NCBI RefSeq assembly: GCF_042847045.1
Contig: NZ_AP035783.1
Span: 3,138,937 to 3,162,936 of the forward strand
Origin: Acidovorax sacchari
Lineage (GTDB): Bacteria > Pseudomonadota > Gammaproteobacteria > Burkholderiales > Burkholderiaceae_C
Direction: 5' to 3'
DNA: 24,000 nucleotides
Below are positions 2,591 to 24,000 of the stretch, piece after piece (position 1 is the stretch's first letter; every line of letters starts with the position of its first letter). Both the position numbers and the translations under genes were made by a program. The notes under the pieces are model-generated. The model saw nothing but the letters and a program-made list of their open reading frames with translations. It was not told the DNA's origin and made no database searches.

Positions 2591-2593
2591 GGC

Positions 2594-5500: not shown

Positions 5501-5755
5501 CGAGGTATCGACCGACGACTCGAAGTACAGCAGGTTCCTGACGCCCGAGAGCTCGCGCTCGATCAGGCTGACCACGGAATCGTTCAGGGTCTGGGGCGTG
5601 GCGCCCGGATAGGACGCGAACAGGCTCACGGCCGGTGGCGCCACCGCCGGGTAGCGCGCAATCGGCAACTGCGGGATCGCGATGGCGCCGAACAGCACGA
5701 TGAACAGGGCGATCACCCAGGCGAACACCGGGCGGCGGATGAAGAACTGGGGCAT
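2594..5755 (-). CDS. RND multidrug efflux permease (AcrB/MexB/AdeB family)
   Basis: 1053-aa ORF. N-terminus MPQFFIRRPVFAWVIALFIVLFGAIAIPQLPIARYPAVAPP matches the AcrB-family signature. Size and 12-TM layout with two large periplasmic loops fit the HAE1 family. Confidence 0.95.
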   Translation of the reverse strand: MPQFFIRRPVFAWVIALFIVLFGAIAIPQLPIARYPAVAPPAVSLFASYPGATPQTLNDSVVSLIERELSGVRNLLYFESSVDTSGSAQITATFKPGTNPELAQVDVQNRIKAVEPRLPQAVRQSGLQVESASSGFLMLVGMTSRDGRYDEVGLNDYMARNIVQELRRIDGVGRVQLFGAEQAMRVWVDPARLLSYGLAMGDVTQAIEQQNAQVAPGRVGDAPTLPGQRVTVPLTVQGQLSTPEQFAAIVLKAGTDGSKVVLRDVARVELGAQSYAFANRENGRVATSAAIQLSPGANAVRTAQAVQDRLDELARTMPAGMEMSVPFNTAPFVKISIEKVLHTLVEAMVLVFAVMFLFLQNIRYTLIPAIVAPIALLGTFTVMLVAGFSINVLTMFGMVLAIGIIVDDAIVVVENVERLMAAEGLSPRDATVRAMREITGAVVGITLVLTAVFIPMAFATGSVGVIYRQFTLSMAVSILFSAFLALTLTPALCATLLRPVGPGHHERRGFFGAFNRGFERLSQGYAARVGRLAGRSGRMMVAFALVCAVLVLAARQLPSSFLPEEDQGYFMTSIQLPTGATSERTLDVVKAFESHVASRPGLASNLVIQGFSFSGSGPNAAMAFTMLRDWSKRDGASARDESERAQEAMRHAPEGTVMSLLPPAIDELGTSSGFTMFLQDRAGRGAEALAAAQARLMELAAQSPLLRNVYPDGLPPGGSVRLDIDRRKAEAMGLSFNAISTTLSAAMGSAYVNDFPNAGRMQQVIVQADAPARMQLGDVLKLRVRNAAGGLVPLGEVTTPVWTESPQQMMRFQGFTAARIAGGAAPGVSSGAAMAEMERLVAQLPLGFAAAWTGQSLQERQSAAQAPLLMALSALVVFLVLAALYESWSIPLAVMLVVPLGLVGAVAAVMLRGLPNDVFFKVGMITIIGLSAKNAILIVEFARQLHAEGRGLLDAAVTAARLRLRPILMTSLAFALGVVPLMLASGASAETQHAIGTGVFGGMVSGTVLAVFFVPVFFVFVMGLQERVAAWRARRNPPELLPAPGGPSTTGGQ

Positions 5756-5770
5756 GGTCCGGCTCCTGCT

Positions 5771-6943: not shown

Positions 6944-6951
6944 ATGCAGGG

Positions 6952-7006
6952 AATCCTTCGCGTGCAAAAAAGGCGCCACTGTGGCGCTCCACGGCTGCGA
7001 AGGATT
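6952..7006. promoter_or_regulatory. Nested palindrome in the divergent efflux/two-component intergenic region (candidate operator)
   Basis: Outer 10-bp arms are AATCCTTCGC (6952-6961) and GCGAAGGATT (6997-7006). They enclose the inner hairpin GCGCCA-CTG-TGGCGC (about 6973-6987) preceded by an A6 run. The site lies between MFP start 6943 and regulator start 7027. Confidence 0.35.
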
Positions 7007-7026
7007 GGGCGTTGTGTGGAGATGCG

Positions 7027-7809
7027 ATGGAGCCGGAAAATCTCGGTAGAGTGCGCGGCGTGTCGATCCCACCCCATCGCATCTTCCGGGAATCCGCGAC
7101 CCAGGCGCTCGTGCTCATCGCGGAGGACGAGCCCGAAATCGCCGAGATCCTCGCCGCCTACCTCGCGCGCGGCGGCCTGCAGACCGTGCATGCGCCGGAC
7201 GGCCAGGCCGCGCTCGCGATGCACCGGGCCCTCAAGCCGGACCTCGTCCTGCTCGACGTGCAGATGCCCCGCGTGGACGGCTGGAAGGTGCTGAGCGAAA
7301 TCCGCCACCGCGGCGACACGCCCGTCATCATGCTGACGGCCATGGACCAGGACATCGACAAGCTCATGGGCCTGCGCATCGGCGCGGACGACTACGTGGT
7401 CAAGCCCTTCAACGCTGCAGAGGTCGTGGCCCGCGTGCAGGCGGTGCTGCGCCGCAGCCGGGGGGGTGCGGGTGGAGCGGGGGGTGAGAGCGCCCAGGCG
7501 GTGCTGCGCGCCGGCATCTTCCAGATCGACCCCGAGACCCACGAGGCCAGCGTGCACCTGGACGGGCAGCGCCACCTGCTGGAACTGACGCTCACCGAAT
7601 TCAAGCTGCTCGCCTGCCTCATGCGCTCGCCCCGCCGCGTCTTCAGCCGGCTCGAACTGCTGGAAGCCTGCCTGCCCGAGGGCGACGCCCTGGAGCGCAC
7701 GGTGGACAGCCACATCAGCAAGCTGCGCAAGAAGCTGGAGCCGCTGGGCGTGGAAGGCCTTCCCGTCAGCGTGCGCGGAGTGGGCTACCGCCTGGGGAGC
7801 GGCGAATGA
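7027..7809 (+). CDS. OmpR/PhoB-family response regulator
   Basis: Receiver domain (LVLIAEDEPEI...DLVLLDVQMPRVDG...ADDYVVKPF) plus winged-helix output (LTLTEFKLL...VDSHISKLRKKL...VRGVGYRL). The ATG at 7027 has GGAG 5 nt upstream. The stop overlaps the kinase start (ATGA). Confidence 0.85.
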   Translation: MEPENLGRVRGVSIPPHRIFRESATQALVLIAEDEPEIAEILAAYLARGGLQTVHAPDGQAALAMHRALKPDLVLLDVQMPRVDGWKVLSEIRHRGDTPVIMLTAMDQDIDKLMGLRIGADDYVVKPFNAAEVVARVQAVLRRSRGGAGGAGGESAQAVLRAGIFQIDPETHEASVHLDGQRHLLELTLTEFKLLACLMRSPRRVFSRLELLEACLPEGDALERTVDSHISKLRKKLEPLGVEGLPVSVRGVGYRLGSGE

Positions 7810-8864
7810 GCAGTTCTCCCGGCCTGCGCCGGCAGGTCATGCTGTCGCTCGGCATCATGGCGCTGGGCATCATCCTGATCTCGGTGATCGGCTCCTACGG
7901 CTTCTACGCCGTGCTAATGGCCTATTCGCCGTCGAGCATTTCCGAGACCTGGATGCCGTCCCGGGTGGAGCTGGTCTGGATTCTGGCGACCATGCTTGTC
8001 GCGCTGGCCATCGCCATCGCCGTCGCCGTGCGGCTCTCGCGCCGCATCCTCACGCCGCTGAACGCGGTGGCCGAAAGCCTGCGCAAGGTGGCCCAGGGCG
8101 ACCTGCAGGCCCGCGCCGCCACCGACGACCACTCCATGGGCGAGACCGCCCAACTGGTGCGCGACTTCAACGCCATGGCCGAACGCCTGCAGGCCATGGA
8201 AAAACAGCGCACCTTCTGGAACGCGGCCATCGCCCACGAACTGCGCACCCCCGTCACCATCCTGCACGGGCGCCTGCAGGGGCTGACGGAAGGCGTGTTC
8301 GAGCCGCGGCCCGAGTTGTTCCAGGGCCTGCTGCGCCACGTGCAGGGCCTGAGCCGGCTCATCGAAGACCTGCGCATGCTGGGCCTGCGCGACAGCGGGC
8401 ACCTGGAACTGGAGCAGATGCAGGCGGACCTGGCGCAGGAAGTCGCCTCCGTCGTGCATGCCTTCGGGCCCGACCTGCATGCGCGCGGCTTCACGGTGCA
8501 GGCCGACATCGCATCGCCCTGCACCGTCACCTGCGACCCGGTGCGCATCCGCCAGGCCCTGATCGCCCTGCTGGAAAACGTGCGCAAGCATGCCGACCCG
8601 GGCCGGGTGCGGATCCACGCGCACGTGGCGGACGGCCGGTGCCACCTCGGCGTGGAAGACGAGGGCCCGGGCATGACCGAGGAACTCGCCGCCCAGGTCT
8701 TCGAGGCCTTCCACCGCGGGGACCCCGGCCGCCCGCAACAGGCCGGCGGCAGCGGCCTGGGCCTGGCCGTGGTCAAGGCCATCGCGGAAGCCCACGGCGG
8801 CCACGCCACCTGCCAGGCCGCGCCCGGCGGTGGCTCCGTGCTCACCCTGCACTGGCCCACGTGA
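7806..8864 (+). CDS. Sensor histidine kinase (two TM helices, very short external loop, HAMP, HisKA, HATPase_c)
   Basis: H-box AIAHELRTPVT, N-box LLENVRKHA, G-boxes EDEGPGM and GSGLGLAVV. The two N-terminal hydrophobic helices are separated by only about 15 residues. Confidence 0.9.
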   Translation: MSSSPGLRRQVMLSLGIMALGIILISVIGSYGFYAVLMAYSPSSISETWMPSRVELVWILATMLVALAIAIAVAVRLSRRILTPLNAVAESLRKVAQGDLQARAATDDHSMGETAQLVRDFNAMAERLQAMEKQRTFWNAAIAHELRTPVTILHGRLQGLTEGVFEPRPELFQGLLRHVQGLSRLIEDLRMLGLRDSGHLELEQMQADLAQEVASVVHAFGPDLHARGFTVQADIASPCTVTCDPVRIRQALIALLENVRKHADPGRVRIHAHVADGRCHLGVEDEGPGMTEELAAQVFEAFHRGDPGRPQQAGGSGLGLAVVKAIAEAHGGHATCQAAPGGGSVLTLHWPT

Positions 8865-10752: not shown

Positions 10753-11736
10753 ATGGACACCCCCTCCAGCCTCTCCGCCCTCCTGGCCTTCGTGCGCACC
10801 GCGGAGCTGGGCAGCTTTGTCGCGGCCGGCCGCGCGCTCGGCATCTCGGCCTCGGCCGTCGGCAAGGCCGTCGCGAAGCTGGAGCAGGAACTGGGCGTGC
10901 GCCTGCTCCAGCGCAGCACCCGCCGCATCGCCCTGACGGAAGAAGGGCGGCAGTTCCACGAACGCTGCCGCCGCATCCTGGACGACCTGGACGACGCCCG
11001 CGCCATGGTGTCCCAGTCGGCCGCCGTACCACGCGGCCGCCTGCGGGTGAGCGTACCCATCGTCACCTACCACCTGCTCCTGCCCCTGCTGCCGGAGTTC
11101 CTGGAGCGCCATCCCCAGGTGGAACTGGACATCGACTTCAACGACCGCATCGTGGACCTGATCGGCGAAGGCGTGGACATCGCCATCCGCAGCGGCGACC
11201 TGCCCGATTCACGCCTCAGGAGCCTGCCCCTGCGGCACTACCGGTCCCTGCTCTGCGCATCGCCCGACTACTTGGCGCGGCGCGGCACCCCGGCCACCGT
11301 GGGCGACCTCGCGGACCACGACGGCATTGCGTTCCGCTATCCCAATTCAGGGCAGTGGCTACCCTGGCCGCTGCCGGGAACCGGAGGGGCCACGGTGCCA
11401 GAAGAGCCGCCTCCACCGCTGTCGATGTCGTCGGCGCCATCGCCATCCCCCCTGCCCCGCCTGCGCCGGGTCCTCGGGTTCAACAACATGGAGGCCGTGC
11501 GCGGCGCGGCGCTGGGCGGCCTGGGGATCGGGTGCATGCCGGATTTCCTGGTGGAGGGGCCTTTGCGGGACGGGGCCTTGCGGCAGGTGCTGCCGGATCC
11601 AGAGGGACGGCCGGCGGGACGGTTCCGGGCGGTGTGGCCGGCGAGCCGGCAGTTGTCGCCGAAGGTAAGGGTGTTTGTGGATTTTTTGAGGGGGAGGTTG
11701 GGGGATCGACAAAGAACCATTAAATCGATGGCTTGA
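10753..11736 (+). CDS. LysR-family transcriptional regulator
   Basis: N-terminal HTH (LLAFVRTAELGSFVAAGRALGISASAVGKAVAKLEQELGVRLLQRSTRR) and a LysR substrate-binding domain. Divergent from the MFS gene. Contains a Pro/Ser-rich insert (EEPPPPLSMSSAPSPSPLP). The last ~10 codons lie in AT-richer DNA. Confidence 0.9.
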   Translation: MDTPSSLSALLAFVRTAELGSFVAAGRALGISASAVGKAVAKLEQELGVRLLQRSTRRIALTEEGRQFHERCRRILDDLDDARAMVSQSAAVPRGRLRVSVPIVTYHLLLPLLPEFLERHPQVELDIDFNDRIVDLIGEGVDIAIRSGDLPDSRLRSLPLRHYRSLLCASPDYLARRGTPATVGDLADHDGIAFRYPNSGQWLPWPLPGTGGATVPEEPPPPLSMSSAPSPSPLPRLRRVLGFNNMEAVRGAALGGLGIGCMPDFLVEGPLRDGALRQVLPDPEGRPAGRFRAVWPASRQLSPKVRVFVDFLRGRLGDRQRTIKSMA

Positions 11737-11830: not shown

Positions 11831-12301
11831 CTATTCATAGTTAGGCGCATAGGGGAATTTTTTTCTAAACTTATCAATCCACCCTCTCACAGAGGGATTA
11901 TCCCTATTTGACCCAACCTCTATCTCATTCCCATTTTTATCATACTTTACCCAATCAAGCACCCGGCCAAATTCGCAGTGAGACTTTTGAAAAACAAATC
12001 CATTTTCATACCACTCTATATTAGGACCGTGAGCCATCCCCGCAAATGACACCCACTCTTGGCTTTTTTTCCCATTCTCGTACCACCATTCACCTGGACC
12101 ATGGACCATACCATTCAAGTATGACCGCCGAGATTCCAAACGGCCATTTTTATAATAAGAAACAGCAATACCAGAAAATGGAATACCATTATACTGAAAT
12201 CCATAATGATCATCTTCCAGATCATCAATATGAACCTCTTTTTTTGGTGCCTCACGGCTCCAATCGTAAGAATCATCATGGCTGGACATAGTGGACACCA
12301 T
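11831..12301 (-). CDS. Putative immunity protein, YwqK-like MORN-variant repeat protein
   Basis: 156-aa ORF in AT-rich DNA. Repeats of the pattern G....YY.NG / NG..HG....WYENG (YYKNGRLE, NGMVHGPGEWWYENGKK, GMAHGPNIEWYENGFV). The start (12301 or 12289) overlaps the stop (12276) of the upstream deaminase-like toxin ORF. Confidence 0.6.
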   Translation of the reverse strand: MVSTMSSHDDSYDWSREAPKKEVHIDDLEDDHYGFQYNGIPFSGIAVSYYKNGRLESRRSYLNGMVHGPGEWWYENGKKSQEWVSFAGMAHGPNIEWYENGFVFQKSHCEFGRVLDWVKYDKNGNEIEVGSNRDNPSVRGWIDKFRKKFPYAPNYE

Positions 12302-14284
12302 TCAAGATATAGTCACAATGGGGGCATGCCGGCTTATACGTACCACGCATTGCAGCCGCTTTAGTCTCTATAGTAGAGACGGCTATTTCACTCAGTTTAG
12401 CACCAGGTCTCGCCAGAAGCAACTCATTCACAGCATAAATCTCCGAATGAGACCCCGCTGCAGCAGACTTTTGATAGCCTAAAAGAACTTCTTCCGGCAT
12501 TTTATCAAGCCGCGAAGTCAATGTTTCATCCATAACAGCTGGAATAGCTCCTCCCTTATTATTCAAGCCAAAACTAACCTGACCAGTCACCATATCTTGA
12601 GCGACAGTAAATGCAGGTTTCAGACTATTTAGAGATTTCCCAGCAGCTTGCATTTGCTCATAAGCCGCCACAGTCAGTTCCTTCAGAGCTTCTGCCTGCT
12701 GAAAAGTCATATCGGCTGCATTTGCATTTGACCGGAAGGCTTGAGACATCTTTATAAGAGCCCCCTCAATGCCTTCCCCAATAGCGCCACCAGCAGCTCC
12801 GAGATCTGCATTCCCAATACGCCCTAAAGCAATGCCAGCGACCACATTAAATTTGAGAGACCCGCCTGTTTGTGCTAAGTTATCGTTCTGAATTACCGGC
12901 GCCAGATTGTATACCTCACTCGATCTAAATCCTGCAAACTCTCCCTCAGCAACAACGCCTGATTTTTCTAGCAAGATGCTATAGCCATCAAGACTAGTTT
13001 TCAGCCCATTTACCGCACCATTAAATGCATCCACCCCAAAGTTAACAAAACCATTGCGAACACCTATCAATCCATCCTTCGGACTTCCAAAAACTGCAGA
13101 GCTCATACTACCAAGAGCGTATCCCACCCCCCAAACTCTGCGCTATACGAGCAGTTAAATACAGCGTTGGCGACTTAATATCAACAGCGTTATCCTGAAT
13201 ACTCTTCCAATATCGATTTATAGAATCTTGAAAAGATGATCCACTTGATTTACGAGGTCCCAAACTCCCAAAAATCGAAGCCAACGGATTAGTGATCTCT
13301 GGCTCTGGCTGTGCGGATTCCTCTCTCAGATTCGTCCGGGCTTGCTCTGCGCCCCCCGACGCCACCGCCCATGGAGCCAGCGCCGTGCCTACCGGCAGGT
13401 CATGTTGCAACACCTGGTTTGCCCGCGCTCCACTATCCCAGTCCGTATATTGCGACCACTCGTCTTGGTAAACCCCATTGCGCATTTTTCCGCCCCCCAT
13501 CATCTGCGAGTCTGCAATGAGCCAAGGTAAATAGGAACTCGCGGCTTGGTCACCGTAGTATTCCAGCGCATTACCGAATGTCATCGATGACTGGGGATGC
13601 GACTGCATGTAGTCGTATGCCGGCATGATCGGATCAACTCCGGCAGCTTGATAACGCTGCGCGATGGACTGGTTCGGATTGCCGCCGGGTTGCTGAGTCT
13701 GCGCACCTGCCAAGGCATTAGCGCCGGTATCAAGGATGGCGGCGCCCATTTGTTGTCCCAGGGCGTTCCCGAAAGCGTCCACAGCCACTTGCTGGATGCT
13801 CACCCGCCCGCCTCGCGCCACGGCCGCGGTCATACCCGCAGCCATCCCGCTGAGCGTCCCTCGGGCCCAGGCGGCTCCCGTCTGGCCAAGCCCATCGAGC
13901 CACGTAGCTCCCTGCAGCGCACTCCCGGCCGCGCTGCCCGCAGCCGCGCCCGCCGCGCTCGCGGCCACACCCCGCCAATCGAAGCGGTCTTGCAACCCCG
14001 TCGCAACGCCAATGCCCTGCGTAATCAGGTTCGTCGTGCCCATCTGCACAGCGGCGCCCTGCCAGCCCGCACTGGCTCCGCTGAAGCCCGATAGGTACTC
14101 CACTCCCGAGGCAACGCCTGCACTGATCGCCGACAACGCGAGACTCTTCCAACTGATGCCGTTCTGGGACCCCACCAGGTTGCCCATCATCTGCCCTGCG
14201 AGGTTGCCAATGACGGGGCCAGCAAAAATGCTGACCACGACACTGACGACGACCACAATGATCTGCCCGACGATCCCGCAGTCT

Positions 14285-14775
14285 CCCCCGTTCGCCGGCA
14301 CCGGCAACACCGGATCCATGCTCCCCATCGCCTGGCTCGGGTCGTACGGCTGGAACGTCTCCACGCTGTTCGCGTTCAGCGCCAGCTTGGGCACCGTCAG
14401 CGTCTGCCCCGCCGTCAGCGCCCCGTCGCCCGACACCGCCAGGCTGTTGGCGTCCGCGATGCGCCACCACAGGCTCGCGTCACCCAGCACGTTGCGCGCG
14501 ATGTCCTTGAGCGTCTCGCCACCCACTACCGTGTAGGCCACCGGGTCCAGGCTCTTGTGGCGCGGGCGGATCTGCGCGGCCTGCAGGCGGAAGTCCGCCG
14601 TGTCCACGTACGCCGGGTTGTTGGCCTGGGGCGTGTTCTCTTCCTGGGTGGGTGCGTCGCCGTAGCGCGCCAGCACCTCGCCGTTGGCGACCAGTTGGCG
14701 CTGCACGTGGCCGGGGGTCAGGGCACTGCCGGTCACCCCGCCCTGGTAGCCCGAGGCCGGGTTGGCGATGCTGCT
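14285..14775 (-). repeat. Copy C of a ~491-bp near-identical constant segment (LysM-coding region), in orphan 1
   Basis: Aligns without gaps to 17852-18342 and 22441-22931. About 10-20 mismatches per pair by hand count. Confidence 0.85.
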
Positions 14776-14873
14776 GTTCACCTCGCCTTGCGCGTTGAAC
14801 CCGCCCTGGTCGCCGCCGCGGCGCGTGAGGGCCGCGCTCTGCTGCCAGCTGCCGTTCAAGTACGTGTACTGGT

Positions 14874-14973
14874 GGGAACCTCTCAAAACCCCGATCCCGG
14901 GGACATCGTGCTCTTAAAAATCAACGAGTTACGGCGCTCCAGCCTGCGAATTCGGAGGTTTTGAGAGGTTCCC
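14874..14973. mobile_element. 100-bp MITE-like insertion with perfect 17-bp terminal inverted repeats and a 4-bp target duplication
   Basis: GGGAACCTCTCAAAACC (14874-14890) pairs with GGTTTTGAGAGGTTCCC (14957-14973). TGGT flanks both sides (14870-14873 and 14974-14977). The uninterrupted site in the main gene reads GTGTACTGGTAGGTCG (about 23203-23218). Confidence 0.7.
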
Positions 14974-15329
14974 TGGTAGGTCGTCGTGGTGGTACCGCCG
15001 TCTCCGTCCTGCCGCACGCCTTTCAGGTTGCCAGCCGCGTCGTACCCCAGGCCCGTCACGCCGCCGGCATCGTGGTACGCCACATCCGAGCGCTGCGACA
15101 CTTTCTGATTCCGACTCCTGAATTAGGGGTCGATCTCATGTTGAGCCTCCGGGGAACTCGAAGCGGCTTACACGGTGCTGGACTGCGCCCAAAAGGCGGT
15201 GGCGATAATCGCCCGCTCATCATTGCTGGACCAGCGATAACGTGAGGCGATCCTCAGGCTGAAGTGTGTATTGCAAAATTATCCGAGGCTCAGGCGTTGC
15301 ACTTCAAATTTGAGACCGCCCCATATATC

Positions 15330-15422
15330 CGGGGCGAAGGCGGAGCACCCGTTCCGGGTGATCAAGCAGCAGGTCGGTCACGCCAAGGTGCGCTATCGGG
15401 GGGCTGTCCAAGAACAAGGTCA
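15330..15422 (+). mobile_element. IS5-family transposase gene remnant (3' fragment)
   Basis: Translates to [26 protein letters not shown], against [29 protein letters not shown] in the intact IS5-family transposase at 18829-19791. There is no upstream transposase sequence. Confidence 0.6.
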
Positions 15423-15424
15423 GG

Positions 15425-15763
15425 TCACTTCGGCGCCAGTTTCGGGGGCAAAGAGTTCAACCAAGGAATTTCATCGTCTTCCTTGTCTTGCAGTATGGCG
15501 GCCATCTCAGCTGCGGTCAGCCAAACACCATGAGCATCTACATAGAATGCCTCTCCATTTACGAGAGATACCTCCTTGGAAATGGCTCGAAGATTTCTCC
15601 TAACAAGAAGTTCATTTGAGACCCTCTCCGTAAATGAAAACAATCCTTCGACCGTTGGCATCTCGCGCTCGTCCTGCAGAACGAAGCTTCGGGAACCTGT
15701 GGCTGACTGGATCAGAAGCAAACGATAGCGTTGGTCACTACAAATATCTGACGGCTTCCACAT
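15425..15763 (-). CDS. Putative immunity protein for orphan toxin 2 (no recognisable family)
   Basis: The start is taken at ATG 15763 (MWKPSDICSDQRY...) with a strong GAAGGAG 6 nt upstream, 12 nt after the toxin stop (15775-15777). 112 aa, AT-richer than the flanks. The longer tracked ORF (to 15823) would overlap the toxin. Confidence 0.6.
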   Translation of the reverse strand: MWKPSDICSDQRYRLLLIQSATGSRSFVLQDEREMPTVEGLFSFTERVSNELLVRRNLRAISKEVSLVNGEAFYVDAHGVWLTAAEMAAILQDKEDDEIPWLNSLPPKLAPK

Positions 15764-15774
15764 CTTGCGCTCCT

Positions 15775-18610
15775 TCAAAACCGGACACCAGGGAATGCCG
15801 AGGATTGCTCGCCAAGGCTCCAAGGCATACCAGAGTATACGGGTGTTCCGTCTTGGAAGGTCGCGGAACGAACGTCTCTAACAACACCGCGCATGGTCGA
15901 GAAATTAATCGCGCCACCTTGATGCTGAATCTCCGCCAAGCGCGCCAAGGCTTCTGCGCGTTGAGACCCAACCACGCCAAGCTCGTGAATCCCCTCATGA
16001 ATAGCTGTGGATGCAACCTCGGCATTCGATGAGTGCGCAGGCAAATATACCTTGGCCTTCGTCTCAAAGGCATAGCCCTTCATTCCAGTGTCGACTGTGC
16101 CGTTAACTCCTTGCTGGAAATAGCTCTTGGAAAACTCGAGCCTAAATCGATTGGTTTGTGCGGCATGGAGAACCTGCCTGCCAATTTCAGAAGTCGCCAT
16201 GTTGTCCAGCACAGCCTGCTGATCGAACCACGAAACATTTCGGCTGAGGCTTCCATCCCGCGTGACAATGGAGGCCGCAGTGTTTGTATTACCGAATTGC
16301 AGTTGAGGCCTAGTTTTAGCACCAAGGTCAACTGCAGAAGCCTCTGTTTGGACCAAAAAGCTCCGCGTAGCAGGCGTACGCGTAATCCCCATAGGAACAA
16401 CGGCCGCTCCCGCAAAATTTAAGCCGAGCCCGAGGCCCTCCCGCGTCAACCCACGCACATCACCGTTCATCGCGGCAGTGGTCAAGCCGTAGGCACCGGT
16501 GCCCGCGTGGTAAACCATCCCGAGCGGCGAGACATTGAAAACGTTCACTCCGGTGGCTTTGATACCTTCCCAGGTACCTGCATCTCCATTCACCACGCTG
16601 TCGGCATAGGAACTCAACGGGATTATTGGCTTGTAATCCCCTGTAACTGCGCCGTGCAACGCCTTCAAGCCGGTCTGCGCCAAATCGGCGAGCGGTGCGA
16701 CCGTGAGGTCCGCCAACCCCACTATCATCCCTGCCATAACATCACCGACACCGCCAGCGATCGCGCGCAACATCGGGGGAATCTCGATTGTGAAAGGCTC
16801 GAAGATCGGCGTCACGGTTTCGCGAATCACACTATTGCGGTTCAATGCCGCTGTTATTTCTTCATCGCGCAACCGATCAAGATCTTTCATGTCGGCTTTA
16901 GCCTTAGCCAGCATTGCATCAACGGAGGGCCCAGCCCCCTTTTCGGTGATGTATACCGTACGCCCACGCTGCTCGATCGAGACAGGGCCGCGTCCCATCG
17001 TGAATCCATCACCGGCTGCCAGCAGTACGTCATTGCTGCGATCCACCGGCGGCGTCGAGCCATCGCCGACGGCGCCCACGAACTACTGCATCTGCGGGAA
17101 GTTTGGCTCATACGGCTTGCCAAATACGATGTGTTCGCCGGTATCCGGGTCCACATACGGACTGGATCCAGTTCCTTGGCCTCGATAGCTGCCACCATTG
17201 CTTGCTGTCGCCAGAGAGTTCCCCAATGCATTCCCAAACGCATCAGTCGCCACCTGCTGCACGCTGACACGCCCGCCCTTCAGCACCGCCGTGGTCATCC
17301 CTGCAGCAAAGCCCGACACGGTTCCACGCGCCAACCCCGTCGCGAAATCGCTGCCCCAGCTTCCGAACGCGTTGGCTTTGTCCAGAGCGCTGCCTACGGA
17401 AGCTCCCACGCCGGCGCCGATAGCGCCAGCCACCACCCCCTTCCAGTCGAAGCGTGGCTGCAGGCCCAGCACGGTGCCGATGCCTTGGGAGATCGTGCCC
17501 GAGACAGCCTGCTTCATCGCCGCATTGCCGAAGGTGCCCAGGTCGGACAACCAGCTGGGGTTGCCCAATCCCGCGGTCACTCCGCTACTCACGGCTGCGA
17601 GCCCCACGCTTTTCCAATTGAAGCCCTTCTGCGCGCCAATGGCGATGCCAACAGCCTGGCTGGCGACCGATCCCACGGCCCCGGCGACCGCTCCTTCGGC
17701 GATGGTCATGCCTCCAGGCAACATGGCCTGGGCGCCGGCCACGAGCGTCTCGCCCAAGGCTCCGGAAGCCCCGGTGAGCAACCCCGCCGTGTAGATCGTC
17801 GCGACCACTGCGATGACGATCATGATGATCGCCCCGATCCCCCCGCACCCGCCCCCGTTTGCCGGCACCGGCAACACCGGGTCCATGCTCCCCATCGCCT
17901 GGCTCGGGTCGTACGGCTGGAACGTCTCCACGCTGTTCGCATTCAGCGCCAGCTTGGGCACCGTCAGCGTCTGCCCCGCCGTCAGCGCCCCGTCGCCCGA
18001 CACCGCCAGGCTGTTGGCGTCCGCGATGCGCCACCACAGGCTCGCGTCGCCCAGCACGTTGCGCGCGATGTCTTTCAGCGTCTCGCCCCCCACCACCGTG
18101 TAGGCCACCGGGTCCAGGCTCTTGTGGCGCGGGCGGATCTGCGCGGCCTGCAGGCGGAAGTCGGCCGTGTCCACGTACGCCGGGTTGTTGGTCTGGGGCG
18201 TGTTCTCCTCCTGGGTGGGTGCGTCGCCGTAGCGCGCCAGCACTTCGCCGTTCGCGACCAGCTGGCGCTGCACGTGGCCGGGGGTCAGGGCGCTTCCCGT
18301 CACCCCGCCCTGGTAGCCCGAGGCCGGGTTGGCGATGCTGCTGTTGACCTCGGTCTTCTTGTTGAACCCGCCCTGGCTCACGAACACCGCCGTGCCGTTG
18401 GCGTCGTTCACGAACATGCGGTCGTAGCGCGCGTCGTTGCTCGTGGCCTGCGTCGCCTGGTTCGTCAGCGCTGCCGCCAGGCTTCCGTCCGGGGCCTGCG
18501 CCGCGCTGCCCGTCACCTTCGGCTGGCGGATGCCCACCACGAAGCCGTTGGCGTCGCGCTGCGTGATCGTGCCCACCACGTCGCCCTGCCGGGTGATGGA
18601 GAGAAGCTGC
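15775..18610 (-). pseudogene. Orphan toxin cassette 2: 5'-truncated YD/LysM/TM/Gly-zipper module with an HExxH-containing C-terminal domain, split by an in-frame TAG
   Basis: ORFs 17083-18579 and 15775-17079 are in the same frame, separated only by TAG (17083-17085): ...NFPQMQ*FVGAVGDGS.... HEGIH lies at 15985-15999. The 5' end is cut by an IS remnant at about 18611. Confidence 0.75.
17852..18342 (-). repeat. Copy B of a ~491-bp near-identical constant segment, in orphan 2
   Basis: Same as copy C. Identity with the main gene extends further on both sides (about 17795-18440 against 22378-23030). Confidence 0.85.
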
Positions 18611-18760: not shown

Positions 18761-19938
18761 GGAAGGTCTGCATAAACCGCCCCACGACATGCTTGGCATT
18801 GTCGTGAAGCCCTGAGACGATACGTCGCATGAAACAGCACAGCTTGGGCCTGGGAATGACGGCGAAGCGAACGCGGCGGCGGGAATTCCTGGATGAGATG
18901 GAGAAGGTCGTACCTTGGGCTGAACTGGTGGCCCTGGTGTCGCCGTACCTGCCCGAAGGCAAGCGGGGGCGTCCTCCGTTCCCGTGCGAGACCATGCTGC
19001 GCATCCATTTCATGCAGCAGTGGTTCGCGCTGAGCGACCCGGCCATGGAAGAAGCGCGGCACGACATGCCGGTGTTCCGCGAGTTCGCAGGGCTCGAGGG
19101 CTGGGATGAGCGGCTGCCCGACGAGAGCACGATCCTGAGGTTCCGACACCTGCTGGAGAAACACAAGCTGGCGGCGCAAATCCTGCAGACCGTCAACGAT
19201 CTGCTCAGCGCCAAGGGCGTGATGCTCAAGAGCGGCACGGTGGTGGACGCCACCTTGATCGCAGCGCCCAGTTCGACCAAGAACAGCAGCGGCGAGCGCG
19301 ACCCGGAGATGAAGCAAAGCCGCAAGGGGCAGCAGTGGTACTTCGGTATGAAGTGCCATATCGGAGTGGACGCCGACTCGGGCCTGGTACACACCGTGCG
19401 CGGCACCAGCGGCGCGGTCAATGATGTGATCGAGGCCAACAGTCTAGTGCGCGCAAGCGACCACGATGTCTATGCCGATGCTGGCTACCAAGGTGCCGGC
19501 CAACGCCCTGATGCCAGGCGCGACGTGAACTGGCACATCGCCATGCGGCCGGGCAAACGTCGCCTGCTGGATCCGGCCAAACCGATCGAAGCCTTGACCC
19601 GGCAACTCGAGCGCGTGAAGGCGGGCATCCGCGCGCGGGTCGAACACCCGTTCCGCGTTCTCAAGCGCCAGTTCGGGCATGCCAAGGTGCGCTACCGAGG
19701 GCTGGCCAAGAACACGGCACAGCTGCACACGCTGTTTGCGTTGGCCAATCTCTGGCTGGTGCGGCGCAAATTGCTGGCTGCCTTGGCATGAGTGCGCCCG
19801 CAGTTCGCCAAGCAGGCCACCTCGGCTGCCAATCCGCAGCCGCGGACGCTTGAACTGGGGTGAAATAGGCCTTTGCCGCGTTGCAGATCGATAGGTTTAG
19901 ACGTCAGCACGCTTATGCGTGTGTTGTGCAGACCTTCC
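18761..19938 (+). mobile_element. Intact IS5-family (IS5 group) insertion sequence, 1178 bp
   Basis: IRL is GGAAGGTCTGCATAAACC (18761-18778); IRR is the reverse complement GGAAGGTCTGCACAACAC (19921-19938). A 4-bp CTAA target duplication sits at 18757-18760 and 19939-19942, fitting the IS5 YTAR target preference. Single transposase ORF. Confidence 0.9.
18829..19791 (+). CDS. IS5-family DDE transposase
   Basis: 320 aa, collinear with E. coli IS5 InsH motifs: ETMLRIHFMQQWF.LSD.AMEE, VDATLIAAPSSTKN, RDPEM.Q..KG.QW.FGMK.HIGVDA.SGL, ADAGYQGA, RARVEHPFR..KRQFG..K.RY.GL.KN. Confidence 0.9.
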   Translation: MKQHSLGLGMTAKRTRRREFLDEMEKVVPWAELVALVSPYLPEGKRGRPPFPCETMLRIHFMQQWFALSDPAMEEARHDMPVFREFAGLEGWDERLPDESTILRFRHLLEKHKLAAQILQTVNDLLSAKGVMLKSGTVVDATLIAAPSSTKNSSGERDPEMKQSRKGQQWYFGMKCHIGVDADSGLVHTVRGTSGAVNDVIEANSLVRASDHDVYADAGYQGAGQRPDARRDVNWHIAMRPGKRRLLDPAKPIEALTRQLERVKAGIRARVEHPFRVLKRQFGHAKVRYRGLAKNTAQLHTLFALANLWLVRRKLLAALA

Positions 19939-20475
19939 CTAAGGTGTGCCACCCTTATTGCGTTTGAGCCAATAGTCAATTGCTTGTTGTTGGTATTTTT
20001 TGAAACTAACAAACATTTGATTAAAATCTTCGAACTCTTCAACCAATTCATTAGTAACCCACAGGACCTTGGGCTGCACCTGTCCGCGCTCCCGAATCAT
20101 TAGCAATAAGTCGGTACTAGAAGAACTCTTTGCAATGGGCAGCATGCTAGAGCGCTGCTTTGCGTAGCTGCCTAGTGCTCCTCTATGCATCATATTTACC
20201 CACTCCTGCGCTTGTCGAAATCGATTGGAGCCGCAGAAATCAGGAGTACCAAACAAATCTATGTCTGCAGAGAAATTATTCCATCCATTTGCATGCAGCA
20301 AGAAATCAACATGTTGACAATCAAACCTTCCCGCAATAGCTCTTTCTGCCGCGTCGATATCGACTGGCATAGCATGAGCTTCGAATGGTAGTGCTTTAAT
20401 GACTCCATTAGACGCAAGCTCCTCTTCTTTGTGCAATCGATCAAAATCCAATAACTCAACTGCCCAATTAATCAT
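19939..20475 (-). CDS. Putative immunity protein, SUKH/SMI1-KNR4-like
   Basis: 178 aa in AT-rich DNA. The start overlaps the toxin stop (TAATG at 20473-20477). SUKH-like pattern: AERAIAGRFDCQHVDFLLHANGW, then LPIAKSSSSTDLLLM and VLWVTNELVEEFEDF. Confidence 0.65.
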   Translation of the reverse strand: MINWAVELLDFDRLHKEEELASNGVIKALPFEAHAMPVDIDAAERAIAGRFDCQHVDFLLHANGWNNFSADIDLFGTPDFCGSNRFRQAQEWVNMMHRGALGSYAKQRSSMLPIAKSSSSTDLLLMIRERGQVQPKVLWVTNELVEEFEDFNQMFVSFKKYQQQAIDYWLKRNKGGTP

Positions 20476-23400
20476 TACATCCCCTTGAGAACAAAACCAC
20501 TTGGCTTAAATCCTATTGGATAACGTCCTGCCTGCCCGCCAAGAGAGCTATTTACGCGCCAGTCTTGATCTATCCAGCGGTAAGCACCTGGCTTACCAGT
20601 CCAAGTTGTATCTGGGCCGTGCCCAACAACACCTTGATATGGCCGCCCTTGCTGTTCCGCCAAAGCCCTCTCAGCAGCGATTGCTCGGTTGGCTTCCATC
20701 CGTAATGCCCCGTTTGTAGAAACCCTTCCCGTTGGCGACAAATAGCCTGCATTCAGGGCTTCATTTGCAACTTGGGTGTACAGATTATAGTCTGCTTTCT
20801 GTGCTGCGGTTGCCCAGAAAGGAACACGTACTTCGACTATGCCGGACATTTTCAATCCGGTTGGCACAAGTCCAGAGCCTAGCGTACCTGCCACACCTGC
20901 ATAATTATAATTAAATGGATTAATTAAGTAAGTGGCGCGATCAATAAAATTAGAAGCCTGAATTAATCCATTAAATGCCGAATCTGGCAACGCATTGACT
21001 GTATAGCGCATCCCTGCCCCAACTCCTTTTGCGCCAATGCCAACACCCCACCCCAAAGCGGCCCCGGCAACTTGTTCGCCCAAGAAGCCACCTTCCATTG
21101 CTCCAGCGGTAGCAAATTCGCCACGCCGGGAATTAACAAACATTTGGCGCACACTATTCTGCATACCATATGCAGCACTCTCTAGTGCCTCCAAAGGGCG
21201 TGTAGTCAAGCCATATAAATACTTTGGAATATTGGGTAAGGTTTCAGCAAAAAATCCCACAAAACCTTTGACCGCACCACCTACATAGTTACTTGAATAT
21301 TCCCATATTTGTGTGAACCCAAGCTCTGGACTTACACCTAAGCCCATCTGCGAAGACAAACGCAATTTGGATATTTCTAGCGAGTAATCAGCATTGACAC
21401 TGTAGTCAGAATTTGATTTATACGAAAATGGATTAGTCCCCACCTTAAGGCCCGACCCGGAAAGCCCTGCCTTGCTATTGAGCTTGAGCGACACTTCCTC
21501 AAGGCTCCAGTCATCACCATACCCGGCCTGCTGCATGCGGTAGGCCATCATTTCGGCGGGGGTGACTGAATCACTGATGGAGGAACCACCCCTAGCTAGT
21601 ATGTGTTCTTTCTGACGAGAGTAGTAAGCGTTGTCGCTCTCCAAATCTGAGCCATTGACGTAATCCCGTTCAGACCATGGTCCTATGCCCTGCAGCTCAT
21701 CGGGCTGCGTGCCGGGCTTGCTCATTACGTCCGCGAGTGAGTGTCCCAACGCATTGCCAAACGCATCTGTGGCTATTTGCTGAACGCTGATTCGCCCGCC
21801 TCTCGCCACAGCAGTGGTGAGTCCTGCAGCAACTCCACTCAACGTCGCTTTGCCAATAGATTCCAATCCGAACGACTGGTCGATCCGCACGCCGTTAGCG
21901 TCCGTCAAGCCAAACGCATTGTTCATGCCCCAGCCCACGCCGGCTCCCGCAGCGCTTGCCGCCACGCTCTTCCAGCTGAAGCTGCTCTGCAGGCCCGTGG
22001 CCACGCCGATGCCTTGCGCGAGCACACTGCTCGCAGCAGCCCGGGCCACCGTCACCCCGAGGGTCGTTCCACCCAGCAGGCTGGTGCCCGCCAGTCCTCC
22101 GGACACCCCTCCGCTCAATGCAGACAGCGCCACGCCCTTCCAGCTGAAGCCATCCTGCGCACCGATCGCATTGCCGACCGCCTGGCTGACGATCGACCCC
22201 ATCGCGCCGCCTGCCACGCCGGCAGCTATTCCTGCACCTATGCCGGCTCCGCCTCCCAAGACACTGGCCCCTGCGGCCATGGTGGCGGCAAACCCTCCAC
22301 CAGTAGTGGTGCCCGCCAATGTTGCTGCGCCCAGGGCATTCGAGCCCAGCGAGCCTGCGGCAGCCAGTGCGCCAGCCGTATAGATCGTCACCACCACGGC
22401 GATGACGATCATGATGATCGCCCCGATCCCCCCGCACCCGCCCCCGTTCGCCGGCACCGGCAACACCGGATCCATGCTCCCCATCGCCTGGCTCGGATCG
22501 TACGGCTGGAACGTCTCCACGCTGTTCGCATTCAGCGCCAGCTTGGGCACCGTCAGCGTCTGCCCTGCCGTCAAGACGCCGTCGCCCGACACCGCCAGGC
22601 TGTTGGCGTCCGCGATGCGCCACCACAGGCTCGCGTCGCCCAGCACGTTGCGCGCGATGTCTTTCAGCGTCTCGCCGCCCACCACCGTGTAGGCCACCGG
22701 GTCCAGGCTCTTGTGGCGCGGGCGGATCTGCGCGGCCTGCAGGCGGAAGTCGGCCGTGTCCACGTACGCCGGGTTGTTGGTCTGGGGCGTGTTCTCCTCC
22801 TGGGTGGGGGCGTCGCCGTAGCGCGCCAGCACCTCGCCGTTGGCGACCAGCTGGCGCTGCACGTGGCCGGGGGTCAGGGCGCTGCCCGTCACCCCGCCCT
22901 GGTAGCCCGAGGCCGGGTTGGCGATGCTGCTCTTGACTTCGCCGATATCGTTGTAGCCGCCCTGGCTCACGAATACCGCCGTGCCGTTCGCGTCGTTCAC
23001 GAACGTGCGGTCGTAGCGCACGTCGTTCAGCTTGGGCCGGTTCAGCTCTGCCATGATCCAGTCCGTTCCCCCCTGCGCTTCCGCCTTGGGCTGGCGGATG
23101 CCGACCACGAAGCCGTTGGCGTCGCGTTGCGTCACCGTCGCTACCTGCGTGCTGCCGCGGTTCGTCACCGCCGCGCTCTGCTGCCAGCTGCCGTTCAAGT
23201 ACGTGTACTGGTAGGTCGTCGTCGTGGCTCCGCCGTCCCCGTCCTGGCGTACGCCTTTCAGGTTGCCTGCGGCGTCGTACCCCAGGCCCGTCACGCCACC
23301 CGCATCGTGGTACGCCACATCCGAGCGCTGCGACACCTCCTGGTTGTCGCCCGTCTTGGAACTGCGCACCACGGTGTGCACGTCCTGCAGCTTGCCCGTG

Positions 23401-24000
23401 GCGTCATACTGGTTGTAGCGGTACTCGTAGCTGCCGCCGTCCTCGCCGATCAACGTGCGGGCTACCACCTGCCGGCCCGCGCCGTCGTACAGGATACGGT
23501 CCATTTGATCGCTCGCGCCATCGCCGCGGTAATAGTCGATGCGGTGCAGATCGTCATAGGTATAGGTATAGGTCTTCTTGAGCTTGCCGTCCGGAGACCC
23601 GGGGTTATTGTCCGTTTTCGGAATGGGTGGCCCGCTGTAGGTCTGGTCCATGATGCGGTTGCCCGCCAGGTCATAGCTGTACCTGTGGGTCTCGATGGCG
23701 CCAGTGACGGAGGACGTCTGCCGGCTCCAGATCTGCCGGTTCATACCGTCGTACAGGAAGTCCGTGGTGTCGGTATGCACCACCTGCCGCTCCTGCAGTC
23801 CGCCCTGGTCCGTGGTCGTGCGGATCGTGTTGATGACGTGCGTCGTCACCTTCTGGCGGTTGCCCCCCAGGTCATAGGTGATGCGCACGTCCGAGCGCCC
23901 GTCGAACACCGCCCGCAGCCGGTGCTGCGCGTCATACACCAGGTGGTTGTCCTGGTACACCACGTCGTCCAGCAGCCCGGAGGTGAGCAGCGTCTTCTGC
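20475..24000 (-). CDS. Large YD-repeat polymorphic toxin, 3' part (N-terminus outside window): YD repeats, LysM, TM helix, Gly-zipper region, variable C-terminal toxin
   Basis: The frame is open to the window edge. Repeated YD motifs (YDAQHRL, YDLGGNR, YDGMNRQ, YDLAGNR, YDDLHRI, YDGAGRQ, YDATGKL, YDAAGNL). LysM (YTVVGGETLKDIARNVLGDASLWWRIADANSL....GQTLTVP). TM helix GGIGAIIMIVIAVVVTIYTAG. GC content drops after the junction motif at 21744-21800. Confidence 0.85.
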   Translation of the reverse strand, partial: QKTLLTSGLLDDVVYQDNHLVYDAQHRLRAVFDGRSDVRITYDLGGNRQKVTTHVINTIRTTTDQGGLQERQVVHTDTTDFLYDGMNRQIWSRQTSSVTGAIETHRYSYDLAGNRIMDQTYSGPPIPKTDNNPGSPDGKLKKTYTYTYDDLHRIDYYRGDGASDQMDRILYDGAGRQVVARTLIGEDGGSYEYRYNQYDATGKLQDVHTVVRSSKTGDNQEVSQRSDVAYHDAGGVTGLGYDAAGNLKGVRQDGDGGATTTTYQYTYLNGSWQQSAAVTNRGSTQVATVTQRDANGFVVGIRQPKAEAQGGTDWIMAELNRPKLNDVRYDRTFVNDANGTAVFVSQGGYNDIGEVKSSIANPASGYQGGVTGSALTPGHVQRQLVANGEVLARYGDAPTQEENTPQTNNPAYVDTADFRLQAAQIRPRHKSLDPVAYTVVGGETLKDIARNVLGDASLWWRIADANSLAVSGDGVLTAGQTLTVPKLALNANSVETFQPYDPSQAMGSMDPVLPVPANGGGCGGIGAIIMIVIAVVVTIYTAGALAAAGSLGSNALGAATLAGTTTGGGFAATMAAGASVLGGGAGIGAGIAAGVAGGAMGSIVSQAVGNAIGAQDGFSWKGVALSALSGGVSGGLAGTSLLGGTTLGVTVARAAASSVLAQGIGVATGLQSSFSWKSVAASAAGAGVGWGMNNAFGLTDANGVRIDQSFGLESIGKATLSGVAAGLTTAVARGGRISVQQIATDAFGNALGHSLADVMSKPGTQPDELQGIGPWSERDYVNGSDLESDNAYYSRQKEHILARGGSSISDSVTPAEMMAYRMQQAGYGDDWSLEEVSLKLNSKAGLSGSGLKVGTNPFSYKSNSDYSVNADYSLEISKLRLSSQMGLGVSPELGFTQIWEYSSNYVGGAVKGFVGFFAETLPNIPKYLYGLTTRPLEALESAAYGMQNSVRQMFVNSRRGEFATAGAMEGGFLGEQVAGAALGWGVGIGAKGVGAGMRYTVNALPDSAFNGLIQASNFIDRATYLINPFNYNYAGVAGTLGSGLVPTGLKMSGIVEVRVPFWATAAQKADYNLYTQVANEALNAGYLSPTGRVSTNGALRMEANRAIAAERALAEQQGRPYQGVVGHGPDTTWTGKPGAYRWIDQDWRVNSSLGGQAGRYPIGFKPSGFVLKGM
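22441..22931 (-). repeat. Copy A of a ~491-bp near-identical constant segment, in the main toxin gene
   Basis: Same as copies B and C. Encodes SSIANPASGYQGGVTGSALTPGHVQRQLVANGE...LysM...DPVLPVPANGG. Confidence 0.85.

Follow-up and report, generated by a model that had tools for sequence, protein, structure and literature searches.

A transmembrane and glycine-zipper module ahead of the variable ends of giant YD-repeat toxins, with a candidate flagellum-derived export route

The 24,000-nucleotide stretch of Acidovorax sacchari DNA analysed here (the window) has a G+C content (GC) of about 70%, interrupted by three islands of lower GC that all lie on the minus strand. At one edge it contains the 3' part of a giant gene for a polymorphic toxin of the YD-repeat kind, followed by an array of orphan cassettes. 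Our subject is the part of this protein that separates the last YD repeats from the presumed toxin: a LysM peptidoglycan-binding domain, a single transmembrane (TM) helix, a glycine-rich region in which a short F.W[KR] motif occurs twice, and a junction motif ending in DAFGNALG. As judged by the profile searches described below, this stretch is a widespread pre-toxin module that lies outside any curated family. The toxin open reading frame (20475-23963) continues to the window edge and the gene starts about 19.6 kb beyond it; the parts within the window, together with the candidate immunity gene, are as follows.

20475..24000, minus strand: giant YD-repeat polymorphic toxin gene, C-terminal 1,175 codons (open reading frame and translation)
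22692..24000, minus strand: last YD/RHS-type repeats, without an Rhs-associated core (TIGR01643 YD_repeat match; no P....DP.G[LWF])
22545..22691, minus strand: LysM peptidoglycan-binding domain (Pfam PF01476, 23.3 bits against a cut-off of 20.9)
22437..22544, minus strand: acidic linker of about 35 amino acids (aa) with a conserved F.PYDPS...P.LP.P motif, kept in the family alignments
22371..22436, minus strand: invariant Cys and strongly hydrophobic, predicted TM helix (CGGIGAIIMIVIAVVVTIYTAG; Kyte-Doolittle 19-residue mean, KD19, of 2.6)
22074..22220, minus strand: first glycine-zipper hairpin unit (SQAVGNAIGAQDGFSWKGVALSALSGG), two predicted helices whose connecting loop holds F.W[KR]
21906..22052, minus strand: second glycine-zipper hairpin unit (AQGIGVATGLQSSFSWKSVAASAAGAG), of the same helical build and F.W[KR] placement; highest model confidence (predicted local distance difference test, pLDDT, 75-86)
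21732..21800, minus strand: junction helix GGRISVQQIATDAFGNALGHSLA with a GxxxG (G-N-A-L-G), the last conserved element (exact motif)
20478..21731, minus strand: variable C-terminal region of 418 aa, presumed toxin (mosaic; GC about 0.48)
19939..20475, minus strand: candidate cognate immunity gene, SUKH/SMI1-KNR4-like, 178 aa (weak Pfam SMI1_KNR4/SUKH_6 matches and position)

The start of the immunity candidate overlaps the stop codon of the toxin gene, and at a related locus (L004) a SUKH gene is also found 3' of the homologous toxin. The original prediction, made from the letters of the window, had described the LysM domain, the TM helix, the duplicated F.W[KR] motif and a junction motif at three sites, and all of these were recovered on the minus strand. 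The LysM domain scores above the Pfam gathering threshold in all three copies of the module present in the window (23.3-25.3 bits against 20.9) and is detected in 28 of the 73 relatives that include the region. The codon of the invariant cysteine (22434-22436) directly precedes the TM helix, in a GCGxxG context, and both this residue and the glycine that follows it are invariant in the family alignment. Lys and Arg are absent from the acidic linker that joins LysM to the helix and occur in the loops past the helix. The 185-241 residues that follow the helix are composed to 47-53% of Gly, Ala and Ser, with only 12-16 charged residues, and each copy holds 30-47 patterns of the form [GAS]xxx[GAS]xxx[GAS]. 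Within this region each copy has two [FI].W[KR] motifs (at 22137-22148 and 21969-21980 in the main copy); because the profiles of the two units of about 48 aa that surround them align with an hhalign probability of 98.9% (E = 2.9e-17), the duplication is real. Three further identities were considered and set aside. The cysteine does not form a lipobox, since it precedes the hydrophobic stretch rather than following it and no signal peptide is present; the F.PYDPS motif misfits PxxxxDPxGL as a degenerate Rhs DPxGL site; and the junction helix has only a weak profile likeness to the first helix of the repeated unit (hhalign probability 20%), too little to count it as a third, truncated copy.

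Structure prediction, which had been named at the outset as a check, agreed with this anatomy at moderate confidence. AlphaFold was run on alignments of 15 and of 32 sequences, and both resulting models (pLDDT 63.5 and 66.5) are all-helical: behind the TM helix come a glycine-rich linker that is poorly predicted, the two hairpins, each a helix-loop-helix, then another helix and lastly the junction helix; in both hairpins the F.W[KR] motif is placed in the loop, with pLDDT of 72-86.

Libraries of described domains and structures contain little that resembles this arrangement. When the three copies were scanned against Pfam (2025 models) and NCBIfam (release 20), LysM and one YD repeat alone matched; the Pfam models Gly-zipper_Omp, Gly-zipper_YMGG and Rick_17kDa_Anti gave no match at E <= 0.1 in any copy. 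A profile search of the region from TM helix to junction against the sequences of the PDB gave nothing below E = 0.04, and when the module model was compared with the PDB by Foldseek, no match fell below E = 1 and the weak ones at the top were unrelated membrane proteins. The suggestion in the original prediction that the layout falls outside the known kinds has therefore held through both the profile and the structure searches. A link to the DUF637 of CdiA was also tried and rejected: one weak match, P0098, carries PF04830, but the window proteins are without DUF637 at E <= 0.1. In the full text of open-access papers and preprints, with the motif string among the queries, no description of the module or of the system was found, and Zhang et al. 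(2012) mention LysM only among the general adhesion domains of polymorphic toxins.

The family itself is nevertheless large. Searched against 1.84 billion cluster representatives, the module profile recovers, at E <= 0.001, 2,959 protein clusters of 50% identity, of which 1,144 reach E <= 1e-30. The homologues are mostly from Burkholderiales, many of them measure 4,000-7,200 aa, and a few hundred residues always separate the module from the C-terminus. Their database names are "LysM peptidoglycan-binding domain-containing protein", "hypothetical protein" or, wrongly, "YgaU". A word-indexed search returned 98 relatives, all shorter than 600 aa, and its index evidently omits the giant proteins.

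The junction marks a sharp limit in these proteins. Among 37 homologues the frequency of the commonest residue is 0.95-1.0 across DAFGNALG, 0.68-0.84 at the SLA that follows, and 0.11-0.30 from about position +12; the expectation that variability begins after DAFGNALG was thus borne out by the alignment, in which the value drops from at least 0.95 to about 0.15 beyond +12. In 73 further relatives the D, F and G are invariant, the A, N, A, L and G are conserved in at least 90%, and the consensus ends at the junction. When 155 representatives were compared, each region beyond it had on average about one detectable relative, over its entire length. For example, the relative P0021 is about 90% identical to the main copy as far as G[QH]SLA and unrelated to it afterwards. 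Conversely, one segment, GPWSdxDYrNGSDiqSDN, follows different pre-junction variants in the main copy, P0037, P0048 and P0056. At the DNA level, too, the change is abrupt: sequence and GC shift right after the junction, as had been claimed, with GC falling from about 0.69 to 0.48 in the main copy and similarly in the orphans. On this comparative evidence the DAFGNALG helix is the family-wide start of C-terminal variability.

The original prediction had proposed that the junction plays the part of a demarcation or cleavage motif. Demarcation holds across the family; cleavage is not established: the motif is predicted to form a helix with a GxxxG, and resembles the final helix of the module more than a protease site. 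Autoprocessing would make the junction a substitute for the aspartyl-protease core of Rhs proteins, with a cut at or just after DAFGNALG, and would be compatible with either of the delivery models discussed below. The motif is placed exactly where Rhs and CdiA proteins have their demarcation motifs (DPxGL and VENN), its D, F, G and N are invariant or nearly so, and the Pfam and NCBIfam scans revealed no HINT, ZU5, caspase or Rhs core domain that might do the processing instead. The predicted helix is, however, a regular one in the style of the glycine-zipper helices before it, no catalytic dyad or nucleophile is evident, and helix packing and a role in marking the limit for recombination can account for its conservation. 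We consider a self-cleaving junction quite improbable. As for the Rhs core end and VENN motif that had been reported missing from the window, DP.GL, P....DP.G[LWF] and VENN are absent from all three copies, from the last 3,332 aa of the giant protein and from 36 of 37 giant relatives, and no NCBIfam Rhs core was found in its last 1,162 aa.

Within the window, the orphan array repeats the same stretch of the giant gene ahead of other C-terminal regions, and each of its two cassettes has a small open reading frame behind it.

18829..19791, plus strand: IS5-family transposase, intact, between the main toxin/immunity pair and the orphan array (Pfam DDE_Tnp_1, DUF772)
17083..18579, minus strand: orphan cassette 2, with YD fragment, LysM, TM helix, two hairpins, junction (17221-17277), 45 aa and a TAG stop
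15775..17079, minus strand: orphan 2 continuation, HExxH metallopeptidase-like toxin region, in the same frame after the stop (weak DUF6782 match)
13108..14886, minus strand: orphan cassette 3, with LysM, TM helix, two hairpins, junction (13756-13812) and a 215-aa variable region
12276..13127, minus strand: YwqJ-like deaminase toxin open reading frame, in another frame than orphan 3 (Pfam YwqJ-deaminase, 1.1e-13)
11831-12301: MORN-repeat immunity candidate 3' of the deaminase frame (Pfam MORN_2)

Orphan 2 is identical to the A. sacchari protein P0001. It is disrupted by an in-frame nonsense codon (TAG, 17083-17085), downstream of which the HExxH motif reads HEGIHELG, and the last 165 aa of its continuation are 68% identical to the C-terminus of a full-length relative, P0107. 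Orphan 3 is split by a frameshift from the deaminase frame, the two overlapping at 13108-13127, and the N-terminal part of the deaminase frame matches the interior of the C-terminal region of the giant protein P0152.

The three copies have not diverged evenly. The block at about 22440-22935, from SSIANPASG through LysM to PVPANGG, is 96-97% identical at the DNA level in all three, and divergence begins already at the TM helix; in the glycine-rich part, identity between copies falls to about 55-72%. The motif GGR[VI]S[VI]QQ[VI]A[TV]DAFGNALG is nonetheless present exactly in each (21744-21800, 17221-17277 and 13756-13812, minus strand), as the original prediction had emphasized, and its 19 codons differ between the window copies by 8-11 synonymous and 2-4 non-synonymous changes. 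The excess of synonymous differences indicates purifying selection on the protein sequence of the junction, whose conservation thus goes beyond chance or recent duplication. The LysM block, by its near identity, seems to have been homogenised recently and is the likely homology arm for cassette exchange; because the orphans share it with the main gene, the toxin ends can be swapped by recombination.

A short frame at about 15271-15603 resembles the C-terminus of the transposase (RVEHPFRVIKQQVGHAKVRYRG), which suggests a truncated second IS5 copy, and a 100-nt insert (14874-14973) with perfect 17-nt inverted ends (GGGAACCTCTCAAAACC / GGTTTTGAGAGGTTCCC) that lies inside the YD fragment at the 5' end of orphan 3 is like a miniature inverted-repeat transposable element. 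The remaining genes at 1079-8864 and 10753-11736 encode an RND efflux operon (outer-membrane factor, AcrB-type pump and membrane-fusion protein), a HAMP histidine kinase and a LysR regulator; no tie between these flanking genes and the toxin locus is evident.

The regions that follow the junction have the character expected of the toxic ends of a polymorphic system. In the main copy the first 90 or so residues (GPWSerDYvNGSDleSDN) and residues 135-298, approximately, are common to a few relatives, and the last 120 or so are unique, in a BLAST comparison with 238 relatives; the region as a whole matches no Pfam or NCBIfam family. Across the family the lengths of the variable regions cluster at 330-500 aa despite their unrelated sequences, and the regions are mosaic, which suggests, from sequence comparison, several sub-domains rather than a bare toxin. 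Recognisable toxin domains were found on about 20 of 73 relatives, or about a quarter of the C-terminal regions examined. Those that act in the cytoplasm include Col/Pyo DNase, CdiA tRNase, ART-HYD1, Scabin-like, TNT, GH-E, WHH, Ntox22 and Ntox46 domains. A conserved body, a hypervariable C-terminal end, an adjacent immunity gene and orphan cassettes, that is, the marks by which polymorphic toxins are recognised, are thus all present.

It might be asked at this point whether the weapon is the module itself, acting as a pore-forming or depolarising agent to which the variable end is an accessory or a specificity region. Glycine-zipper membrane toxins exist in type VI secretion systems (T6SS), type VII secretion systems and contact-dependent inhibition systems, and the abundance of small-xxx-small-xxx-small patterns and scarcity of charge noted above would suit such a role. 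A toxic module would, however, be expected to have a conserved immunity protein, and instead the downstream genes vary with the C-terminal region (SUKH, MORN and others); many of the C-terminal regions are recognised enzymatic toxins; and it is the C-terminal region that the orphan arrays vary, which in polymorphic systems is the mark of the toxic part. We therefore think it very unlikely that the module is the weapon, and return to it as the element that precedes, and may deliver, the toxin.

The remainder of the giant protein lies outside the window. An exact-protein match (Acidovorax sacchari, AP035784.1) gives its full length as 7,881 aa, with RHS_repeat, Big_3_5 and TEN_YD-shell matches; the 3,332 aa upstream contain eight RHS_repeat matches (PF05593) and DUF5648 repeats. 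The gene starts at about 3,183,056 in the record and the N-terminus reads MVANVSANGLGLSTGSLATLGQQG. Among 43 relatives longer than 1,900 aa, 26 start with MVAIVSGNSLGLSLTSLATLGQRG...VNxxTGNLVLQ...VRTYNSQG, and the others look like fragments. The first 38 or so residues form a conserved leader (MVA.VS.N.LGL...), which from about residue 40 gives way to DUF6531 and then to RHS repeats. No domain, Flagellin_N and Flg_bb_rod included, matches the leader, whose likeness to the N-termini of axial proteins is visual only. The original prediction had pointed to the N-terminus as the place to look for a PAAR domain, a two-partner secretion (TPS) domain or another secretion signal. No PAAR, VgrG-binding, TcB-associated or TPS domain and no Sec signal was found there, and what the N-terminus has instead is the conserved leader and, adjoining it in the genome, a cluster of flagellar type.

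At a distance of 273 bp from the giant gene, and divergent from it, lie a 196-aa TPR gene (TPR196) and a 128-aa gene. Past this operon the cluster begins with a 398-aa TPR gene and a gene for a 276-aa sigma factor, whose best matches are to FliA/WhiG, below the family cut-offs. It continues with FliP, FliO, FliN, a FliM-like protein, FlgE, FlgD, a 386-aa protein, a 171-aa coiled-coil protein, FliI, FliH and a 220-aa protein, and ends with FliF, FliE, FlgC, a FlgB-like protein, FlgI, FlgH, FlgA, FlgG, FlgF, FlhA, FlhB, FliR and FliQ. The FliM-like protein has the FliMN_C domain alone, and the 220-aa protein, in the position of FliG, is without a FliG match. The 26 genes, together with the divergent TPR196 operon, span L090:9729-20591, L091 and L092 (from about 3,183,057 onward), and beyond them lie a 187-aa gene, Ku and LigD. 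Judged by its gene content, the locus has the components of a complete export gate and ATPase complex, of an MS ring, rod, P and L rings, and of a hook. Between Ku/LigD and the toxin array it contains no flagellin, FlgK/L, FliD, MotAB, FliL, FlgM/N or FliS/T. The TPR proteins have a weak likeness to the LcrH/SycD chaperones. The N-terminal leader is a candidate for an export signal read by the gate, and TPR196 and the 128-aa protein are candidates for a cognate chaperone.

This neighbourhood is not peculiar to A. sacchari. Collimonas fungivorans has the same cluster arrangement, and at two divergent metagenomic loci the giant gene again stands beside FliI, FlgD, FlgE, FliN, FliO, FliP, sigma and TPR genes, with orthologues that are 30-77% identical and with the local order inverted. 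A scan with an alignment of the N-termini, limited to one genome per species, yielded 324 loci, 80 of which were analysed. The recurrent order (FlgD, FlgE, x, FliN, (FliO), FliP, sigma, TPR390, a divergent small gene with TPR200, sometimes an ATP-grasp gene, and the giant gene) was met in Collimonas, Variovorax, Noviherbaspirillum, Paracidovorax, Paucibacter, Cupriavidus, Achromobacter, Pandoraea, Trinickia, a metagenome-assembled genome of Rhodocyclaceae and an alphaproteobacterium, and synteny extends over more than 12 genera, a sphingomonad among them. Upstream sequence of 9 kb or more was available at 62 loci; within 10 kb, 16 of these have FliP, 24 have TPR200 and 37 have at least one accessory gene. 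Many genomes hold several giant paralogues. The ATP-grasp-like gene (340 aa, EMNxNP motif, weak YheC/D match) lies directly upstream of, and divergent from, many giant genes (L004:8682-9704, L005:8777-9799 and 12 of the 62 other loci) and is absent at the A. sacchari locus.

A second thread that may join the giant genes to the cluster is a promoter-like motif. In the 250-300 nt upstream of giant genes GCTAAAC occurs at 37 of the 80 loci, against about one expected, and about 20 loci have GGATGTATT. The fuller form, CTAAA[CGT]-N17-GGATGnATTG, is present at 64 of the 80, at a median of 116 nt before the start codon, including loci with no cluster nearby. Its TAAA-to-GAT distance is 18 nt, and the sigma-28 consensus, TAAAGTTT-N11-GCCGATAA, has the same spacing. 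A position-weight matrix places a strong site ahead of the A. sacchari giant gene (a CTCAAC variant, scoring 37 against a median of 32; L090:9821-9859, minus strand) and a weaker one facing the TPR196 operon, with no other site in about 60 kb of cluster sequence and none inside the window. As a sequence pattern this fits the giant genes being late genes, with the sigma factor of the cluster as the putative reader of the motif.

A more ordinary account would make the cluster a second motility flagellum that happens to be a neighbour, with the toxin exported by some other route and the module still a pre-toxin element. The A. avenae group swims by a polar flagellum with a well-studied flagellin, so that the cluster beside the toxin gene would be a second system. 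The link between cluster and toxin is one of genomic association, and the filament, junction and stator genes could come from elsewhere in the genome. Coincidental proximity accords poorly, however, with an adjacency kept in more than 12 genera in spite of the low identity of the orthologues and the inverted local order, with a locus, enclosed between Ku/LigD and the toxin array, that has no flagellin, FlgK/L, FliD or MotAB, with proteins in the FliG and FliM positions that are without the usual domains, or with a sigma-28-like promoter motif shared by giant genes at distant loci. We accordingly rate a mere neighbouring flagellum as rather unlikely.

From sequence and gene context we infer the following mechanism. 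The giant protein would be a late substrate of a flagellum-derived type III export machine, exported unfolded and N-terminus first, so that its YD part would fold outside the cell and the module and toxin would emerge last. LysM would then grip the peptidoglycan, and the TM helix and glycine-zipper hairpins would insert into the cytoplasmic membrane of the target, with the acidic N-terminal flank outward and the Lys/Arg-bearing loops inward. Because the linker is acidic and free of Lys and Arg and the loops past the helix bear them, the orientation predicted in an energised membrane is N-out/C-in; this orientation would leave LysM facing the wall and the toxin facing the cytoplasm, and hence favours a fused translocator. 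Insertion would carry the variable toxin region across the membrane, in the manner of a translocator built into its effector, and the junction helix would be the end of the insertion module and the boundary for recombination, without need of being a cleavage site. Membrane insertion or translocation by the module is plausible from its composition and predicted fold. We regard as evenly balanced the proposition that a type III machine of flagellar descent exports this polymorphic toxin, and that the module is both the toxin's built-in means of membrane insertion or translocation and the boundary of its cassettes. We hold slightly more tentatively the wider proposal that the giant YD/LysM toxins are dedicated late substrates of a flagellum-derived apparatus (export gate, rod, L and P rings and hook, served by a FliA-like sigma factor of its own and by TPR chaperones) whose locus has neither filament nor stator genes, and that, with the module as a fused translocator, they constitute a new interbacterial (or bacterial-fungal) delivery system widespread in Burkholderiales.

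The principal rival assigns the same elements to the producing cell. In a CdiA-like arrest, the helix would halt export at the gate or inner membrane, LysM would hold the producer's own wall, and the toxin end would wait in the producer's cytoplasm, together with the immunity protein, until contact with a target triggers release. The helix, at KD 2.6, is hydrophobic enough for a true membrane anchor; LysM lies only about 45 residues from it, on the acidic flank, and inner-membrane proteins that contact the wall typically show such a geometry; the immunity candidates look cytoplasmic (inspection by eye alone revealed no signal peptide); and the module is present whatever the type of toxin, as would befit a general anchor. 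A chain inside a closed rod and hook channel would, however, have no access to the producer's periplasm, which would cut LysM off from its own wall, and there is no N-terminal Sec signal for an alternative route. Nor does anchoring give a role to the two conserved hairpins or to the GxxxG helix. Producer-side anchoring is, in our judgement, unlikely, and we retain insertion into the target membrane as the preferred reading.

Several observations nonetheless tell against insertion in the target after flagellar-type export. Envelope-acting toxins are also found on the module (Lipase_3 three times, a VgrG3-like C-terminal domain and SLT_4), and they weigh against a translocator since they would need no crossing of the inner membrane. 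The AlphaFold confidence for the module is only moderate (pLDDT 63-67). The likeness of the TPR proteins to chaperones is generic and below the family cut-offs, and about 40% of the giant loci examined have no accessory gene within 10 kb upstream. Adjacency to the cluster and a shared promoter motif could, as features of sequence, mean no more than co-regulation. For a type III substrate, a length of 4,000-7,900 aa combined with a very hydrophobic helix is unusual, and the route by which LysM would cross the Gram-negative outer membrane to reach peptidoglycan is unexplained.

Conservatively, then, we are dealing with a new variant of the polymorphic YD-repeat toxin; if the flagellar link is functional, it would make a new delivery system. 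The family numbers thousands, in soil, rhizosphere and plant-pathogenic Burkholderiales, and it fits neither a recognised trafficking class (T5, T6, T7, Tc/PVC) nor a recognised demarcation motif (VENN, DPxGL, LXG-type). If the module is a self-inserting translocator, it would offer a compact, portable means of carrying diverse enzymes through a bacterial membrane. The DAFGNALG boundary offers in addition a rule for finding hundreds of new toxin/immunity pairs.

Comparison with the known systems shows where the resemblances end. Like the Rhs/YD toxins (Rhs of T6SS, TcC and WapA, with the teneurins as eukaryotic relatives), the giant proteins have YD/RHS repeats, a DUF6531-type start and a hypervariable end, and their loci have an adjacent immunity gene, downstream orphan cassettes and a toxin end of lower GC. 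Unlike Rhs, they are without the Rhs-associated core, the PxxxxDPxGL autoprotease motif, and a PAAR, VgrG, TcB-type or Sec N-terminus; LysM, the TM helix and the glycine-zipper hairpins are interposed between repeats and toxin. They are also 4,000-7,900 aa long and linked to a flagellar-type cluster, and their variable ends measure about 330-500 aa, whereas those of Rhs proteins measure about 100-300 aa.

With CdiA the giant toxins share great size, a presumed surface location, a conserved pre-toxin region that ends in a short motif (VENN in CdiA, DAFGNALG here), a C-terminal region of modular build, in which varied toxins follow shared sub-modules, and orphan cassettes; one relative even bears a CdiA-type tRNase domain. 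Unlike CdiA, they have no TPS domain, FHA repeats, DUF637/PT-VENN or CdiB, their upstream neighbours being TPR and flagellar genes, and their pre-toxin region has a true hydrophobic TM helix and LysM.

By analogy, the module resembles the translocators of type III secretion systems (YopB/D with SycD, IpaB/C with IpgC), the TM domains of the T6SS prePAAR proteins, and Tde1, in all of which hydrophobic helices are thought to insert and to pass a toxin; the glycine zipper of Tde1 is reportedly required for translocation. As with the type III translocator/chaperone pairs, small TPR genes with a weak LcrH/SycD likeness adjoin the giant gene. Unlike those translocators, the putative one described here would act in cis, N-terminal to the toxin and at the C-terminal end of a giant YD protein, and, unlike the injectisome, the adjacent export genes are flagellar in type (rod, L and P rings, hook). 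If export by this hook-basal-body cluster is real, a flagellum would have become a weapon for a second time, independently of the injectisome, and the "extra" flagellar clusters in many genomes would be explained. The flagellar export gate, rod and hook are used, or suspected to be used, for secretion unrelated to motility in Yersinia (YplA), in Campylobacter (Cia) and in the hook-basal bodies of Buchnera, all of which involve a motility flagellum or its degenerate remnant. In contrast to these cases, the giant YD-repeat toxins are accompanied by a separate and compact cluster with its own sigma factor, placed beside polymorphic toxin, immunity and orphan genes.

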